From positions 1 to 55,000 of the forward strand of contig CAVOMX010000008.1 in NCBI GenBank assembly GCA_963697165.1: a stretch of DNA of 55,000 nt, written 5' to 3'. How positions within the stretch are numbered: the first letter of the stretch is position 1; each line of letters starts with the position of its first letter. Shown here piece after piece: positions 1 through 7,744 of the stretch. A model generated the notes under the pieces. The model was not told where the DNA came from and made no database searches. It saw only the letters and a program-made list of their open reading frames with translations. The stretch comes from Candidatus Bathyarchaeota archaeon. GTDB taxonomy: Archaea; Thermoproteota; Bathyarchaeia; Bathyarchaeales; Bathyarchaeaceae. Position numbers and translations under genes: made by a program.

Positions 1-894
1 GCCGCCGTATTCTGCCTCGATGAGAAGCATTGGTCGCCACTCAATCTTAGCACGGGCAACATTAGTTAACCGGACGTTTCCTTGCCGGTCAACAATAAGA
101 AACTTCTTCCCCAGACTTTAGCTCAGACAAGTATCTAGTCCTAGCAGGGGACGTGAGAGCATACAACGAAAGAGGACCAGCGTTTACACGGAAGGGACGG
201 GTTTCCACGTATGGGCTTTCATGAACCTCAGCCTGAACCAGAAACAGCCCAGAAGACTGGCAACCCAAAAGAATACCCTCTCCAGGCTTCATAAGGTCAC
301 ACGTATCGATGCAGGCTCGGGCGCCTGTTCCAATCTCCTTCAACTCAACAACCTCAACAGCAACCAACTCAAGCGCAATAGCGTCCTTCTTGGCAAACTC
401 TGCTGTCTGTTTGAGTTCTTCGAGGCTAGCTGTCTTCAGACCATCTGATCCAAGCTCCAAAGTTTCCAAGGCAACCTTCGCCTCTTTGTGCTGGAGACTT
501 CTGCAAGCAGCTTGGTTTTTCCTCTGGTCTTGGCGATGAGGTTTTCTAAGGGAATAATTTTCCAGTCTGGAGTGCCAACAATAACGTAATCGCATGAAAG
601 CTCAGCCGCGGCTATTGCAGTCTCCTCATCCTGTTTTCCTTCAATGATTATTTTCACAGCGACAATTCTGCCCTTTGCCTTCAACGCCTTCAGTTTCTCA
701 GAGTCAAACACAGAAAGAACGGTGATGTCAGCCTCCGGAGAAGTTGAGGCAGATTTAATTCCAGAATTTTTGGCTTTCTCTATGTCCTTTACATCAACGA
801 GCACGGCATCGCAGGTCTGAGCCGCAGACTTTAGCAATTTAGTTTTCGGGGTTTCAGGAAGGGAATGGTCTATTTCGAGCCAAAGTTCCTTCAT
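1..894 (-). CDS. aroB': 3-dehydroquinate synthase II (archaeal AroB'); frameshifted, runs off the window start
   Basis: ORFs 436..894 and 89..595 plus a third frame reading RAKIEWRPMLLIEAE; motifs DWKIIPLENLIA, RACIDTC, RPFRVNAG, TRYLSELKSG. Confidence 0.9.
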
Positions 895-1683
895 TTGGAT
901 TCACCAAGAATCTTCAGGGCTTCAGCGACTGACGTCTCAGAATGGACAATAGCTGAGAGAGCCATGACTATCTTGGCTGGGTCTTCGTGCTGAAACACGT
1001 TTCGTCCGTATGGAAAGACCTGCCCCTCCAGCAGTTATGGAATCCTTTACCATCTGAAGGACATCACTGCTTGTCTCCATTTTTGGTCCACCAGCAATAA
1101 TAACTGGAACATGGCAACTGCTGATAACCTCTTTGAATGATTCAACATCGCCAGTGTAGTTTGTTTTGACGATGTCTGCTCCTAACTCCTCGCCTAAACG
1201 AGCAGCGTGAGCAACCAAATCCACTGCATGTGAATCTTTTATGTTTGGTCCTCGAGGATACATCATAGCCAGAAGTGGCATGCCGTAATCGTCGCATTCA
1301 CAGGCTACCTTACCAAACGTCGAGAGCATCTGGGCTTCCTGTTTAGCACCCACATTAATGTGCACTGAAACACCATCAGCCCCCAATCGGACAGCATCAT
1401 CCACAGAGCAGATTTGCACCTTATTGTTTGGGTCAGGACAATGAACAGAAATTCCCGACAAGTGAACAATTAATCCTGCGTTTCCAGCATCAACACTTTT
1501 TGCTATGCCCCTGTTGATGACAACCGCGTCAACACCCCCAAGCAACAGCTTGTAAATGATGCTCTGCATATTCCCTAGTCCCTTAACTGGACCAAGTGTT
1601 ACGCCGTGGTCCATGGGAACAATTACTGTTCTGTTGTCGCTTCGGAAGATTCGTCTTAACCGTCTTTTTTTACCGGATTCCAA
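891..1683 (-). CDS. aroA': 2-amino-3,7-dideoxy-D-threo-hept-6-ulosonate synthase (class I aldolase, AroA'); frameshift near the 3' end
   Basis: PMDHG, GMPLLAMMYPRG, LGADIVKT, AGGPK motifs; adjacent to aroB'; C-terminus ALSAIVH...KILGESK lies in another frame ending at 891. Confidence 0.88.
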
Positions 1684-1698
1684 AAGTTTCTATCTCCT

Positions 1699-2736
1699 TT
1701 AGATGAACTTTTTCATTTTCAAGTATTCCGCGTTAAGGATGCCACAGCCAGCAGCTCCCCGTATGGTATTATGTCCCAGAGCAATAAATTTCACCCCATC
1801 TAACACTGGATCCTTTCTGATTCTACCAACTACAGTGCTCATGCCATTGCCCTCCATCCTGTCCAATCGAGTTTGCGGACGATCATTCTCCCACGTAACA
1901 ATAACTGGCTTTTCGGGGGCTGACGGAAGCTTCAGCTTTTGAGGTTCCCCAACAAAGTTTTCCATAGCCTCAGCTACAGCATCAGGCTCCGCCTTCTTTT
2001 TCGTCTCTACGAATACCGCTTCCATGTGACCATCAATCGTTGCAACTCTGTGACAACTAGATGAAACCTTAAAGTCCGCAGGTTTTCAGGCGGTACCCAA
2101 AATCTTCTGTGTTTCGGTTTCCATCTTTGCCTCTTCTCCTCCGATATATGGAATAACATTGTCCACTATGTCAAGGGAGGCAACACCTGGATATCCAGCG
2201 CCTGAGATTGCCTGCATCGTAGATACTATGAGGCTGTTTATGCCAAACTCGTCATAGATTGGCTTTAGGGGCAATGTTAGAACGGTTGTGCTGCAGTTGG
2301 GGTTTGTTACGATTGCTCCGTCCCACTTTCTTTTTCTGCGCTGTTCTTCTATTAGGCTGATGTGGCTGCAGTTTATTTCAGGGTTCAGCATGGGAACGTC
2401 AGTGTCCATTCGATGGGCAGAGGCGTTGCTAACCACAACATATCCTGCCATGGCGAATGCTTCCTCTACATTTCCCGCTACGTCAGATGGTAAAGCTGAG
2501 AAGACAATGTCAACATCCTTAACTGCTCGTGGGTCGATGTTTACAACTTCCATTTGGGCGACAGCTTCGGGAACTGGTGTTGATTGTCGCCATCTGGACG
2601 CTTCATTATATGTTCTTCCTGTGCTTCTTTCTGAGGCTGCAACCGTTGAAACTTCGAACCAGGGGTGCCCCTCTAGCAGTTGGACGAAGATTTGTCCGAC
2701 GTTACCTGTTGCTCCTAATACAGCTGCTTTCAACAT
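1699..2736 (-). CDS. asd: Aspartate-semialdehyde dehydrogenase; one frameshift near 2085
   Basis: [30 protein letters not shown] across ORFs 2086..2736 and 1699..2025. Confidence 0.95.
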
Positions 2737-2738
2737 TT

Positions 2739-4008
2739 TTAGTCACCTTCTAATGCGTCTCTAACTAAGTTTAGGACTTTATCTTTTTCCTTCCATTCTA
2801 CAAATAGAAGAATGCTTGACGTGATTGTCATTAAGCCGAAGATGTTGATGGAGTTCAGTCTCAGAGCCTCAGATATTCTTCCTGTGAGCACCTGGAGTCT
2901 TCTCTAAGCCAACACCCTTGACTGTAAGAAAAGCCAATTGCTTTCTAACAGACATAGCCAATGTCTCCGGATGGGCTAGTATTATTTCATGAATTTTTTC
3001 GAGTAGTAGATTCGAATCCGATTTCTCTGAAGTATAGAGTATCAACGAATCGTAGTTCAAGGATAAACCCAGAAGCTCAGCATGATTTTTCACTGATTCA
3101 GTCAGCTCTTTTATAACTTGAGGCTGCTCGGAGACGCCCTTGCCTACAACAGTGATTAATAGAGCAGGAGAAGGACTTGTCAATTCAACATTCAAGTCGT
3201 TTGAGAGCGCTCCAACAATCAGAGTGCCCTCCGCGTTCAGATCGCCGTGACTGTGTTTGATTACCCTAACTTTTATTGACGCATCCTTGTATCTTAATGC
3301 CTTTCTGTGAATGAATTTTGTGCCAGAGTCTGCCAATCCAACCAAAGTGTTTACGTCAATTTCTGGAATCCGCTTTGGACTAGCAATAATCTTTGGGTCA
3401 GCGGACATAATTCCCTCCGCATCAGTGACTAAGATAAGCTCATCCGCCTCTAAAGCCTTCGCTAATATGAAGGCAGTTGTATCACTTCCGCCTCTCCCCA
3501 ATGTTGTTACTCGATTGTCTTTGGTTCTGCCCACGAAACCCGCAATCACGGGAATAACGCCAGCCTCAACAAGGGGCAGCACATTCAGTTCAGCTCGTTT
3601 GTAGCATGTATCCAAGATTGGGTTGGCGTCCGAAAACGAGTCGTCTGTTAGGATAGGCCATTCTGGATCGTGTGGGTCCACGTAACGGGAATCCACTCCC
3701 TGCGCCTTTAATGCGGCAGCGATAATTCTGATACTGGTTCTTTCCCCCATGGCCAGAATCTCATCTAAGTCTTTCTTATGCAACCTGCCATTAGAGCTGT
3801 TTTTGGCTGCATTAAAAAGCGCGTCAGTTGTTTTTCCCATAGCTGAAACAATCACGACAATTTGTGTACCCTTCTTTGCTTCTTCAGCAACTGCCGTAAC
3901 TGTCCTCAATATCCGTTCGTTATCTGCGAGGCTAGAGCCCCCAAATTTAACCACGATTCTTTTAGGTTTTTTTTCAGTATTTTGTTTCATAACAATTAAA
4001 CCATCCAT
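2739..4008 (-). CDS. lysC: Aspartate kinase with ACT-type C-terminus; frameshift near 2880; start at 4008 or 3990
   Basis: [40 protein letters not shown]. Confidence 0.92.
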
Positions 4009-4009
4009 G

Positions 4010-4053
4010 AAGCCCAGAAAGCTAAAGACGTTAAATTTCAGCTAGCTGGACTT
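4010..4053 (-). promoter_or_regulatory. RNA hairpin between the leader stop codon and the lysC start
   Basis: AAGUCCAG-cu-AGCUGAA pairs with UUUAGCU-uu-CUGGGCUU: 15 bp with a 2x2 internal loop. Confidence 0.6.
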
Positions 4054-4123
4054 AATTATAAAAGAAATAGCCAAAGCTATAGAAGTGCCAAGAAGTTGTC
4101 GAAGTCATCAAGTGGCTATTCAT
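4052..4123 (-). CDS. Putative leader peptide MNSHLMTSTTSWHFYSFGYFFYN (23 aa) of the lysC-asd-aroA'-aroB' operon
   Basis: Translated by hand; ATG lies ~37 nt downstream of a TTTATATA box; 8 of the last 12 residues are W/F/Y. Confidence 0.7.
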   Translation of the reverse strand: MNSHLMTSTTSWHFYSFGYFFYN

Positions 4124-4159
4124 AGACCCAGTTTCCTTGATTGACACAAAACCCCCTTC

Positions 4160-4176
4160 TTATATAAAAAATTATC
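4160..4176 (-). promoter_or_regulatory. TATA box for the leader/lysC operon
   Basis: Minus strand reads CGATAATTTTTTATATAAG. Confidence 0.65.
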
Positions 4177-4240
4177 GTAGAGAAAAAATGGATGCAAAAG
4201 ACGACTTCAAAGTATGCATATGCCCATATGTCTTGAATGC

Positions 4241-5584
4241 TTAAACATATTTCATGAGGTATTCTTTTGCTTCGTTGACGCTTTTGAAACCGTATTTAAT
4301 TTCATTGAAGCTCTGCCTCAATTTGATGACATCCTTTCGTACTTCTGTGGGGGTCCTCTTGCCCTTCACGACATCCAATATCAAAGAACACAGGCACTCT
4401 ATGTCTTTTTCTTTGAAGCCTCTCCGGGTTACGTCTTGGAAACCTATTCTGAGACCCGACGGGTCACCATGGTTATGCTGATTGTCGTATGGCAAAAGAT
4501 TCTTGTTCAAAATAATGTGAGCATCCTCAAGACTAAACGCAAGCTTCTGTCCGCCACCGTATTCCCTAACGTCAACAGTGATCTGATGGGAATAAGTAAA
4601 CCCATTCTTTCTTCCCAAAACCTTCACTCCATTCTCGAACAGGCACTTGCCCGCGGTCTGAGCATTCTTAATTGTCTGCTTAGCCAACTCCTTACCATAC
4701 AGTTTCAGTTCCAATGCGGCTAAGCCCAAGGCAGGAAGCCGACCAAGATGAGTGTTCGAGGCGCTTAATGGGAACACCGCATGCTGCACCTTCTTGATTG
4801 CCTTCTTCATCCGCTCATCTTCACAATTTGCGAGGATAACTCCGCCTTGAGGTCCTGGAAAAGTTTTGTGTGTTGACGCAGTTATGAAATCCACGCCCTC
4901 CCCGAAGGGATCCTGAAACTCTCCACCAGCAATCAAGCCCAAGACATGAGCTGCATCATAAACAACATAGGCGCCCGTTTCTTTAGCAACATTTGCCAGT
5001 TCTTTAACTGGATGGGGAAATGGGAAGACACTACCTCCGAAAGTCACTATGCCGGGTCTAGCTGCGTCGATTATAGTTGCAGACTTTTCTGAGTCAATGT
5101 TCAATTCATCTATATTGTAAGCATGATTGATGGTTTCTAGCCCTAAGACCTTTCCGGCTAGTCCAGAATAGTCATGAGTTATATGAGCCCCGGCGCTGAG
5201 GGGTAAGACTACCATCCGATTATTTTTTGTTGCCAAAGAGATGCCTTTGAAGGTGGCAAGATTTGCGTGGGTACCTGAAACGAGTCTAACGTCGGCCCAA
5301 GTGCATCCGAACAGGTTTTTCATCAAATCTGTTGCGTAATTCTCGATTTTTGTAATGTATTTTTGGCCTTGATAGTGCCGTGCTTTAACGTGACCCTCAA
5401 GGTTATTTTCTCCTTCAGCGTATCTGGATTCCAAGTCCTGTGACAAGCTTAGTATTTCACTAACTGCCAGAGATTTGAGTCCTTCGCTTGCAATCAGATT
5501 TATGCACTCTTCTCCTCGGTAACGTTCATGGTCTTCGCTGGACTCAATTAACCCGAGAGCTAATTTCAAGAAGTCATTTTCCAT
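4241..5584 (-). CDS. glyA: Serine hydroxymethyltransferase (archaeal type)
   Basis: INLIASE, RYAEG, DAAHVLGLIAGG, STHKTFPGPQGG; GGAGG before the ATG at 5584. Confidence 0.95.
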   Translation of the reverse strand: MENDFLKLALGLIESSEDHERYRGEECINLIASEGLKSLAVSEILSLSQDLESRYAEGENNLEGHVKARHYQGQKYITKIENYATDLMKNLFGCTWADVRLVSGTHANLATFKGISLATKNNRMVVLPLSAGAHITHDYSGLAGKVLGLETINHAYNIDELNIDSEKSATIIDAARPGIVTFGGSVFPFPHPVKELANVAKETGAYVVYDAAHVLGLIAGGEFQDPFGEGVDFITASTHKTFPGPQGGVILANCEDERMKKAIKKVQHAVFPLSASNTHLGRLPALGLAALELKLYGKELAKQTIKNAQTAGKCLFENGVKVLGRKNGFTYSHQITVDVREYGGGQKLAFSLEDAHIILNKNLLPYDNQHNHGDPSGLRIGFQDVTRRGFKEKDIECLCSLILDVVKGKRTPTEVRKDVIKLRQSFNEIKYGFKSVNEAKEYLMKYV

Positions 5585-5806
5585 CGCCCGTTTTCCTCCC
5601 AAACATTTCTTAAGGGCATTTTGTTGCTTTCTGAGCATTGCGTCACTTATTTATATTTCTTCACACGCAAAACCTCAGCATCAGCCTGTAGCTTCGAAGG
5701 GCTTTTGCTGGCAATTTCCTGTTAAGAAATTGCTGTATTATAAGTCAATATATTGATTTCATAAACCTTTTCTTTATTTTCAATATCGATTAGAATGGTG
5801 GAATCC

Positions 5807-5953
5807 ATGAGTGACCGAAAACTCCACTATGGAGTGCGCTTAACCGCGGAGCAGCTTAAATATTTGAGGACTGTTGGTAAGCCTTCAGAATGGATACGTC
5901 AAGCAGTAGATGAAAAGAGAAGACGCGAAACGAAGAATCTCAGATTAAGATGA
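5807..5953 (+). CDS. Small ribbon-helix-helix-like protein (48 aa, MSDRKLHYGVRLTAEQLKYLRTVGKPSEWIRQAVDEKRRRETKNLRLR)
   Basis: Translated by hand (below the ORF track cutoff); beta-strand GVRL, helix, then SEWIRQAV, as in the CopG/Arc family. Confidence 0.6.
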   Translation: MSDRKLHYGVRLTAEQLKYLRTVGKPSEWIRQAVDEKRRRETKNLRLR

Positions 5954-6297
5954 ATTTAAGCTGGACATGAAAGCAGCACAGAAAAAACCGAGTTTGAGTC
6001 TACGAATGCCAAGTTGAAAGAAAAAATAGGCAAGACTTTTTGTCACAACATTTCTAGAGGTTCAGTCAAATTCATTTATGTTGTAACATACTTGTCTAAA
6101 TAGTTTTGAAATTTCTTTATCATCAACTACAATCAAATTCTTAGTCAATAGATGGAAAGCCAACAGAAAGTTGTCGAAAAGATTCTTTCTGAAAAAGAGT
6201 TGTTATAAAATAATGTCGGATTCATCGAAGACATCATGTTTTATTCCGACACATTTTTATAGGTGGTAAGTGAAATCCTCTCTTTGAGGGTGTTATT

Positions 6298-7744
6298 GTG
6301 TCGGGATATGACGGTAAGAAACCGGAAACAAAAGAAGAATTCATCGATTTATTGGTTGCAGCCAAGAAAGAGGAAAGGAGAGTAAGGAAATCTCGGGGGA
6401 GCAGATCCACGAAACCGACAATTAAGGGCACAGCAGACATGATGGGCATTCACCGCGATACGCTGTATCAGTGGCTGAGAGAATTTGAGGTTGACTTTAC
6501 TGATGTTGATGAAAGAAAAGTGGTTTCTGAAGCTCCGAAGTGTAAAGAATATACATATTTGATTGGCGAGGCTTTGATGGGCGAGGGAACAGAGGTTGCC
6601 CACGTGGATTTGCTGATTGGAGACAAGGAGGGTCCAGTTGGAATGGCTTTTGCCAACGGTTTATCGAACTTGTCTGCGGGTCACACTCCGCTTTTAGCGG
6701 TTATACGTCCGAATCTTCCTCCTAAACCGCACACGCTTATTGTGCCAAAGGTTACTGTAAAAAATATGGAGCAGACAGGAAAAATTTTTGGCCCTGCTCA
6801 GGCGGCTGTGGCAAAGGCGGTTGCGGATTCTGTTGAGGAGGGCATTATTCCATGGGATAAGGTTGATGATTGGGTGATAATCTGTAGCGTCTTTATTCAT
6901 CCGCAGGCTAAAGATTACCGTAGCATCTATCACTATAATTATGGAGCCACAAAACTAGGCGCTGTCGAGGGCTTTGGAGAAATATCCTTCATTAGATAAA
7001 GTCATGTATGACAAAGACCGTGCAAAGCATCCGATAATGGGATTCAATGTGCCTAGATTGTGGAGACCACCCTACCTGCAGATTGCGTTGGATGTTCCTA
7101 ACTTGGAACGTGTCAAGAAAATCATAAGTGAACTGCCGGAGAGCGACAGAATCATCTTAGAAGTTGGCACACCTCTGCTGAAGAAGTATGGAGTTAACGT
7201 CATCCGCGACCTAAGGGAGGTAGCGAAAGACATGTTCATCGTAGCTGACCTGAAGACGTTGGATGTCGGAAAAGTGGAGGTTGACTTAGCCTTTGAGGAA
7301 ACAGCCGACGCGGTTGTAGTTGCTGGTTTAGCAACCGCAGAAACTATAGACAAATTCATCAAAGAATCAAAAAGGCTGGGAATCTACTCAATAATGGATC
7401 TGATGAACGTTGACGACCCTATAGCCAAACTTCGGTCACTCAAAAGATTACCTGACGTTGCGATTTTGCATCGTGCCATAGATGCAGAGAAAACAGGCAA
7501 AACACGTTGGGAGATAATCAAGGAGATGAGGCAGACATTCCAAGGCCAAAAGTTTTTGGTAGCCGTTGCAGGCGGCATAACTCCGGAGACAGCACCTGAA
7601 GCGTTGGCAAACGGGGCAGACATCATAATTGTCGGACGATACATAACGCAATCCAAGGATGTGGAGCGGGCAACCAGGGAGTTCTTGAAGTCTACAAGAG
7701 AGATGGCAGAAGACATCGACCTCTTCAGGGTGCATGTAGAGTAA
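6298..7744 (+). CDS. fae-hps: Bifunctional formaldehyde-activating enzyme / 3-hexulose-6-phosphate synthase with an extra N-terminal HTH; frameshift near 6960
   Basis: Fae motifs [45 protein letters not shown]; Hps motifs [27 protein letters not shown]. Confidence 0.9.

Follow-up and report, generated by a model that had tools for sequence, protein, structure and literature searches.

A conserved phenylalanine/tyrosine-codon leader and hairpin precede the lysC-headed aromatic operon of Bathyarchaeia: a probable ribosome-read sensor

Introduction

Can an archaeon set the output of a biosynthetic operon by the position of a ribosome on a leader peptide? This question is raised by a locus in a 55,000-nucleotide (nt) stretch of DNA from a Candidatus Bathyarchaeota archaeon (contig CAVOMX010000008.1, positions 1 to 55,000; "the window" below), in which a short upstream open reading frame (uORF) ending in Phe and Tyr codons, followed by an RNA hairpin, stands ahead of an operon beginning with the aspartate kinase gene lysC. 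An earlier note on this DNA proposed a two-part attenuator leader sensing both the aromatic and the aspartate-family products of the operon. Comparison of the leader across the class Bathyarchaeia indicated a conserved element with which ribosomes very probably sense Phe and Tyr.

Results

The leader locus lies on the minus strand and consists of a promoter, a leader ORF with its own Shine-Dalgarno (SD) sequence, a Phe/Tyr cluster abutting the stop codon, a hairpin running from the stop codon to the lysC SD and a helix competing with that hairpin (Table I). The TATA box, the 23-codon ORF with eight Trp, Phe or Tyr (W/F/Y) residues among its last 12, the 15-base-pair (bp) hairpin beginning in the stop codon and the perfect 8-bp complementarity within the ORF, all described in the earlier note, were each present. 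The TATA box was located 45-52 nt 5' of the leader ATG in 24 of 25 loci of the window's genus and transcription presumably starts downstream of it; in this genome the 16S 3' terminus has an anti-SD of the usual type. Folding of the hairpin, which consists of 8+7 pairs, gave -18.2 kcal/mol (z -3.94), and none of 200 shuffles was as stable. As a control for chance, short intergenic ORFs located 5' of genes in this genome were scored, and at least eight W/F/Y in the last 12 residues were found in only 2 of 1167, both of them assembled copies of this leader. The leader ORF and hairpin ahead of lysC are thus real and not a chance arrangement.

One element of the earlier description required correction, namely that the hairpin ends 2 nt before the first lysC ATG. 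The ATG in question, at 4008, was rejected as the lysC start, this position being ATG in 6, TTG in 13 and no start codon in 6 of the 25 genus loci. In all 25, the conserved start is that at 3990 in the window, behind a GGAGG-type SD and approximately 64 nt past the leader stop, and the hairpin therefore ends 19 nt before lysC. The absence of a U-tract after the hairpin was borne out by a scan for bacterial promoters and terminators, which found no hairpin followed by U residues and nothing above chance. Comparison of the leader region with Rfam covariance models, including T-box, riboswitch and bacterial leader models, gave 0 matches at E values up to 10.

Table I. Features of the leader locus, its operon and the candidate frameshift gates (window positions unless a contig or loci are named)
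Feature	Position	Strand	Remarks
Archaeal promoter: purine stretch resembling a B recognition element (BRE), and TATA box	4161..4178	minus	TATA box TTTATATA at 4168-4161
SD-like AAGGA of leader ORF	4134..4138	minus	AGG invariant in alignment A1
Element A, hexamer of the 5' untranslated region (5'UTR) between leader SD and start codon	4126..4131	minus	alternative partner of hairpin 5' arm (A:B)
Leader ORF, 23 codons	4052..4123 (4123-4052)	minus	front half Ser/Thr/Asn-rich; Phe/Tyr cluster in last 12 codons, 4090-4055
Inner helix, codons 2-4 (4120-4113) with aromatic codons (4073-4066)	4066..4120	minus	perfect 8 bp in window
Single U4 run, from codons TTT-TAT	4060..4063	minus	TTT-TAY in 25/25 genus leaders
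Hairpin B:C, arms 4053-4037 and 4026-4010	4010..4053	minus	first base within leader stop codon
lysC SD	4001..4006	minus	GGATGG in window, GGAGGG in most relatives; 3 nt 3' of hairpin
lysC, aspartate kinase	2869..3990	minus	NCBIfam; 3' end shifted by one-base assembly indel near 2889
asd	1699..2736	minus	one TGA interrupts window copy; intact on contig C21
aroA' (ADH synthase)	937..1683	minus	end truncated by indel near 1008
aroB' (dehydroquinate synthase II)	89..894	minus	split by indels near 440-488 and 100; operon runs off contig end
Candidate trpE gate	G000:C24 near 50085	minus	L110; relatives L113-L142; SD-like hexamer, 3 nt, NTT, Trp codon
Candidate hisZ gate	G000:C11 near 138708	minus	L153; relatives L143-L165
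Candidate cimA/leuA-like gate	G000:C11 near 117147-117180	minus	L111; out-of-frame uORF, gate before Ile codon
Family f26 loci	L178, L187-L190, L197, L200
Family f34 loci	L184, L185, L191, L198, L199

The earlier note had suggested looking for a conserved aromatic uORF across relatives in Bathyarchaeia, and such a uORF was found. Two initial searches returned 104 loci, 74 of them distinct, and 73 of the 74 had a Phe/Tyr-rich (F/Y-rich) ORF whose end lies 47-77 nt upstream of the lysC start, the remaining locus having no upstream DNA. Among 40 further loci drawn from the whole class the leader was present in 27 (one weak and one a duplicate) and absent from 12, with one locus lacking upstream DNA. 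Outside the class, 7 of 20 loci combined at least six aromatic residues with a hairpin of -17 kcal/mol or better and several more had weaker aromatic tails; none was seen in family f48 (3 loci). Short uORFs ending in Phe/Tyr were also observed near lysC in family f41 (L228-L232, outside the class), with no stable hairpin; it is possible that these are a minimal form of the leader.

Counts given below refer, unless stated otherwise, to 96 complete leaders, of which 25 are from the genus, 41 from a clade designated f9, 18 from a "class" group and 12 from other lineages. Excluded from these were three truncated loci (L025, L039 and L083), the second genome copy (L031), L108 (no lysC 5' end), L109 (bacterial), L182 (no upstream DNA) and the duplicate L209, and the 12 loci of families f26 and f34 were tallied separately.

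At least five F/Y were found within the last 14 codons of 94 of the 96 leaders, and the last 12 codons comprised 32% Tyr and 29% Phe with only approximately 1% Leu, Ile and Val together. In a set of 70 leaders the corresponding fractions, with those expected from base composition in parentheses, were 0.31 (0.07) for Tyr, 0.28 (0.16) for Phe, 0.005 (0.17) for Leu, 0.002 (0.09) for Ile and 0.001 (0.07) for Val, and the other two reading frames of the same leaders held W/F/Y at only 0.135 and 0.10. The earlier note had allowed that T-rich composition alone might produce the aromatic enrichment; since Leu, Ile and Val are excluded where 33% would be expected, this explanation is rejected. Both codons of Phe and both of Tyr are in use and the two residues interchange at individual positions. 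The ORF was 72, 75, 78 or 81 nt long in all 27 aligned sequences, and the flanking spacers took all three residues modulo 3. Peptide sequence and length thus drift freely, and it is F/Y content and distance to the hairpin that are held.

The hairpin is conserved in the same manner, its sequence being wholly different between families and its pairs holding within clades. A stability of -10 kcal/mol or better was predicted in 93 of the 96 leaders, ending approximately 18 nt before the lysC start, and the first paired base lay at -2 from the end of the stop codon in all 25 genus leaders and within -3 to +5 in 94 of 96. In the genus and its neighbours hairpin B:C was 91.4% paired and its covariation score was not reached by any of 500 shuffles. 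A second helix in these leaders, A:B, joins the 5'UTR hexamer to the 5' arm of the hairpin and thereby closes off the start region of the leader itself; it was 91.9% paired with 3 of 6 pairs changed on both sides, and the 13-pair structure including it likewise had a covariation score reached by 0 of 500 shuffles. Strand B is common to A:B and B:C, and the two helices are each kept in the genus and its neighbours. In the f9 clade the first aromatic codons replace the hairpin arm as partner of the segment equivalent to A, and no conserved competitor of B:C was found in that clade. Duplex z-scores against shuffles supported A:B or the f9-type helix in 65 of 95 leaders. Across 27 sequences the inner 8-bp helix was 85% paired and none of its pairs changed on both sides; it is genus-conserved but does not covary.

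The identity of the operon accords with the codons of its leader. Downstream of aroB', and following the second copy of this region on contig C21 and a closed relative, the operon continues aroD-aroE-aroK-aroA-aroC and, after a short unassigned gap, with genes for an aminotransferase and prephenate dehydrogenase (tyrA), the prephenate dehydratase gene being convergent to its end. It is therefore the whole shikimate-to-Tyr pathway, headed by lysC, and because it runs from lysC to prephenate dehydrogenase the Phe/Tyr codons are a cognate match. Phe and Tyr were constant among the leaders and Trp occurred in only 33 of 96. That the ribosome senses Phe and Tyr through the leader is regarded as highly probable.

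The additional proposal that Thr/Met codons in the front half add aspartate-family sensing, on top of either output considered below, is improbable. It draws on the gene content of the genus, in which asd lies inside this operon and is the sole asd in the genomes searched, and on the front half of the genus leaders, where Thr (0.27 against 0.10 expected) and Met (0.06 against 0.01) exceed composition, three Thr codons are used and codon 6 alternates between Met and Thr, a position at which a stall would also keep the hairpin intact. However, Ser, which is not a product, is enriched more strongly in the same half (0.35), Thr is absent from 20 of the 96 leaders, several of them with asd in the operon, and internal Met is absent from 52. 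In many other lineages asd is located beside the second aspartokinase or elsewhere, and Thr/Met codons serving the asd branch should track it; Thr plus Met content was unrelated to the presence of asd in the operon (11 and 17 genus-level groups, means 2.99 and 3.44, p=0.71), so that co-sensing is not supported. The candidate replacement gates of families f26 and f34, described below, use Phe/Tyr codons only, and asd is mostly in the operon there. No Thr-rich leader was seen by eye before the hom-lysC2 genes. Of the two product families named in the earlier note, the Phe/Tyr part is therefore conserved, the Thr/Met part is not upheld, and Trp is dispensable.

For an operon of biosynthesis to be controlled sensibly, the stalled state must be the ON state, and a switch can be proposed on that basis. 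The leader is presumably translated, and under Phe/Tyr shortage the ribosome would stall on the cluster, covering its U/C-rich codons; the hairpin would then hold its own pyrimidine-rich 3' arm, leaving the lysC ribosome-binding site (RBS) free and the operon on. With Phe and Tyr plentiful the ribosome would reach the stop codon and melt the base of the hairpin, releasing the 3' arm, and on its departure the codon tract would be released also, such that either strand could pair over the lysC SD and start. The helix formed by element A would close further initiation on the leader, and the untranslated RNA would then be shortened by the nuclease aCPSF1 (polarity). We lean towards this reading, in which the leader is a gauge of charged tRNA-Phe and tRNA-Tyr with a translational output on the lysC RBS. 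Local folding with a 12-nt ribosome footprint is consistent with it, since in every one of the 25 genus leaders opening of the RBS was costlier with the ribosome at the stop codon than with it stalled (6.8 versus 3.3 kcal/mol), the freed 3' arm folding on the SD, and the sign was the predicted one in 66 of 96 leaders overall. Opening was also costlier after ribosome release than in the stalled state in 84 of 96, the U/C-rich codon tract extending the hairpin over SD and start.

Several results weigh against a translational switch of this design. Among the 12 leaders of other lineages the predicted sign was kept in only 5, in both folding comparisons. Shuffled spacers masked the RBS as well as real ones, which exceeded the shuffle mean in 28 of 96 leaders, and shuffled or synonymously recoded tails did likewise (23 and 30 of 96, respectively). 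Equilibrium folding of whole leaders, with approximately 10 nt included that probably precede the start of the transcript, gave no difference at the SD (mean +0.05, +0.01 and +0.01), and a helix between the 3' arm and the SD showed no covariation, its score being reached by 177 of 500 shuffles. The loci are moreover kin and not independent trials, so that the counts overstate the case, and the case of Streptomyces ilvB illustrates that cognate codons do not by themselves make a leader the sensor (PMC1262725). The switch is thus compatible with geometry and composition, but as shuffles mask equally and covariation is lacking between arm and SD, nothing proves design. The earlier suggestion of translational control hence fits the geometry of the locus and fails the shuffle controls as regards sequence-specific masking. 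Coupling of termination and reinitiation is described in H. volcanii over roughly 30 nt, a range exceeded by the 64-nt gap between leader stop and lysC start (PMC12548453).

The main rival of the translational output is termination by aCPSF1 (FttA) downstream of the same sensor, in which a stalled ribosome covering the U-rich Phe/Tyr codons and the hairpin covering the remainder would keep the factor off until RNA polymerase is at lysC, and completion of the leader would expose single-stranded U-rich RNA to cutting. The factor is encoded in this genome, in three pieces that are probably due to assembly indels, and is reported to favour U-rich RNA no more than 36 nt away from the 3' end (PMC11616081), with a hairpin described as unnecessary for archaeal terminators (PMC8716108). 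Among 70 leaders, 68 had a U4 run within the last 12 codons, against 56.8 (maximum 66) on synonymous resampling, as did 87 of 96 in the larger set; two or more tracts were present in the whole region of 68 of the 96. The hairpin in addition fills the gap from the stop codon to the RBS, to approximately 18 nt from the AUG. Against this, efficient binding in M. maripaludis needed two U4 tracts (PMC8716108) and the window leader has one, fewer than two tracts were present in the whole region of 28 of 96 leaders, no U4 lay between stop and RBS in 41 of 96, and the codon tail of 7 of 18 "class"-group leaders had none. A stalled ribosome would also be uncoupled from RNA polymerase, which would tend to favour termination. 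A transcriptional output is on balance considered rather unlikely.

A second design was encountered at loci where the leader is missing. In bacterial prfB an SD-like hexamer is followed by 3 nt, an NUU codon and a slow A-site codon, with the gene continuing in the +1 frame. None of the 12 loci of families f26 and f34 has the leader or the hairpin; they carry instead SD-like/NTT/Phe-or-Tyr sites, 11 of 12 lying one base out of the lysC frame, in tandem as Phe and Tyr or as Tyr then Trp. Their lysC stands in the +1 frame with a long N-terminal linker of low conservation, and in L187 that frame is closed by a stop 3 nt ahead of a lysC TTG start. In-frame GTG or ATG codons that arise within the SD-like motifs are possible starts at these loci. 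Use of Phe/Tyr codons in these gates independently names Phe and Tyr as the signal.

The same layout was found at three other amino acid genes, each in the +1 frame. All 31 trpE loci examined begin with an SD and start codon one base out of frame, followed by RGG-NAT-NNN-NTT-TGG (Trp), and in 14 of them the TrpE frame itself lacks a start codon at the corresponding position; a Trp gate of this kind at trpE would explain why Trp is dispensable in the aromatic leader. For hisZ, 7 of 30 loci were excluded because they could not be parsed as hisZ; among the other 23, NTT and then a His codon were present in that frame in 20, 19 of them with a start codon, and a nearby in-frame start was found in only 2; L152, L163 and L164 deviate from the layout and also lack an in-frame start. 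In this genome a cimA/leuA-like gene is first in an ilvB-ilvH operon; no start codon of its own lies close to the 5' end, and it follows an out-of-frame uORF in which an Ile codon comes directly after the gate and a Val-Leu pair is located further upstream. Scanning this genome for the layout with the last codon left free returned exactly three sites (hisZ-His, cimA/leuA-like-Ile and trpE-Trp), a test of specificity and not of discovery, since the pattern was built from hisZ, cimA and trpE. Judged by their sequences these sites are candidate +1 frameshift gates that would open on shortage of the pathway's product. A genome-wide ranking of uORFs by codon enrichment yielded no other leader that stood out, the unranked list being too unspecific. 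At the hisZ loci a conserved GTGGGT...ACCCAC-type inverted repeat was observed between TATA box and SD, a possible operator, and a small AbrB/ACT-like regulator (by eye) is divergent from the his operon at G000:C11:138783-139209.

The existence of such candidate gates in this genome raises the possibility that the window's leader is itself one, the ribosome slipping +1 at TTT-TAT when Tyr is short, bypassing the stop, crossing the hairpin and fusing to or reinitiating at lysC. TTT-TAY was present in all 25 genus leaders and in 37 of the 41 from the f9 clade (L035, L036, L074-L107, L205-L212). In 33 of these 41, against a shuffled null of 19.7, no stop interrupted the +1 frame as far as the end of the hairpin, and in 24 it ended between -15 and +7 nt of the lysC start. 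In the genus, however, the +1 frame was open in only 2 of 25 (null 13.2), mostly stopping 10 nt past the leader stop, and frameshift fusion or coupling to lysC was rejected for the window's genus as the frame does not reach lysC; in the f9 clade it may occur. The distance from leader stop to lysC takes all frames, the SD-like hexamer before candidate slip sites never exceeded 4 of 6 matches, and Phe codons could not be read by slipping. Frameshifting in E. coli pheL proved to be incidental (PMC3082878). With lysC neither in nor coupled to its +1 frame, the window's leader lacks the prfB-type layout, and slippage is the least probable of the readings considered here.

That the leader is not a sensor at all, the aromatic peptide acting in trans or the ORF and hairpin setting a constant level of expression, is also very unlikely. 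A hairpin directly after a stop codon can serve as an insulator, which would suit such a role. The free drift of the peptide under constant F/Y content and hairpin distance argues against it, as does the replacement of the leader in two lineages by another device built on Phe/Tyr codons.

The assembly required some care in reading the operon. Positions 1-6093 of the window and G000:C21:179-6277 are 98.2%-identical copies of the glyA-leader-aro region, probably representing two strains. The window copy contains many one-base indels as well as the stop in asd; as the breaks in its lysC, asd, aroA' and aroB' are missing from the 98%-identical C21 copy they are probably assembly errors. Elsewhere in the assembly, breaks also affect trpE, aCPSF1 and the second lysC. 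The indel near 2889 in lysC is absent from C21 and from an RNA-library contig, and intact aroB' with its downstream genes is found in L031 and in the relative L032. Two estuary metatranscriptome contig sets covered the operon patchily, one with low depth over the leader, and were used only to show that several window indels are not shared, contigs being blind to transcript ends, strand and level.

Directly 5' of the leader throughout the genus is glyA (serine hydroxymethyltransferase; window 4241-5638, minus strand). The upstream gene differs in other genera and the TATA box is kept, indicating that the leader has its own promoter. A second aspartokinase is encoded elsewhere in the genome, adjoining an ORF resembling homoserine dehydrogenase. 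Further along the window, 6298-7744 (plus strand) encodes a fusion of formaldehyde-activating enzyme and hexulose-6-phosphate synthase, split by an indel near 6958 and carrying an extra N-terminal helix-turn-helix-like stretch. An Lrp-family regulator gene adjoins pheA in a relative (L032:4759-5238; LysM/LrpA-like matches), and an Lrp-like gene, in its N-terminus only, lies upstream of leu genes at G000:C21:21005-21523. Protein-level control of the Lrp type may overlay the leader.

Discussion

The leader has the short conserved uORF with its own initiation signals and the cluster of end-product codons (in the last 12 codons, F/Y at 0.60) that mark a classical leader-peptide attenuator, and no intrinsic terminator, that is a hairpin with U-tract, was found after it. 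It resembles the enterobacterial pheL-pheA, trpL, hisL and thrL leaders in its short uORF, clustered end-product codons and probable alternative helices overlapping the ORF end (PMC3082878). From these leaders it differs in its archaeal host and TATA promoter, in the interleaving of two amino acids, in a cluster that abuts the stop codon and in having one dominant hairpin lacking a U-tract, no terminator/antiterminator pair having been found. With the Rho-dependent E. coli tnaC and the terminator-less actinobacterial cys leaders our leader shares a codon run near the stop, lack of an intrinsic terminator and proposed factor-dependent termination (PMC1262725). Unlike them it has a conserved hairpin after the stop, and the factor would be aCPSF1/FttA; tnaC differs further in being induced by its own amino acid. 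In the mycobacterial poly-Cys small ORF (sORF) Ms5788A the codon tract is described as pairing with the next SD, which a stalled ribosome frees, with polarity spreading the effect (10.1101/834739). Cognate codons at the uORF 3' end are common to both. Ms5788A is a leaderless uORF with one very stable duplex that includes the SD (10.1101/834739), whereas the uORF here has an SD, its hairpin excludes that of lysC and the predicted SD pairing is weak, G-U-rich and of no fixed register. The f26/f34 lysC, trpE, hisZ and cimA gates match the prfB layout, the slow codon being a stop in prfB and a sense codon of the product in the gates.

The leader is thus likely to work like a bacterial ribosome-mediated attenuator, outside the terminator-based class, and to be of a kind undescribed for archaea in the literature searched. 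As presented in a 2021 account, no transcription attenuation was known in archaea (PMC8448881), a review of the same year lists one archaeal programmed frameshift (PMC8211752), and a report of Methanosarcina uORFs does not, in the text available, mention attenuation (PMC11456600). A full-text literature search, which left out supplements (for example Ribo-seq sORF tables) and most subscription papers, found neither an archaeal leader-peptide attenuator nor an amino-acid-sensing frameshift.

We regard as evenly balanced the broader proposition that Bathyarchaeia run their amino acid operons on ribosome-read gauges of two interchangeable designs, the stall-and-hairpin leader and the +1 slip at a hungry codon. 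The gates also indicate that, in this group, standard gene finders misplace the starts of trpE and hisZ. The hairpin leader, an element of approximately 190 nt that is portable to reporters, makes it testable whether archaea can control operons by ribosome position and whether aCPSF1 reads the uncoupling of transcription from translation. If it acts through aCPSF1, the leader would be the first archaeal transcription attenuator, with a CPSF73-like nuclease in place of the bacterial terminator hairpin.
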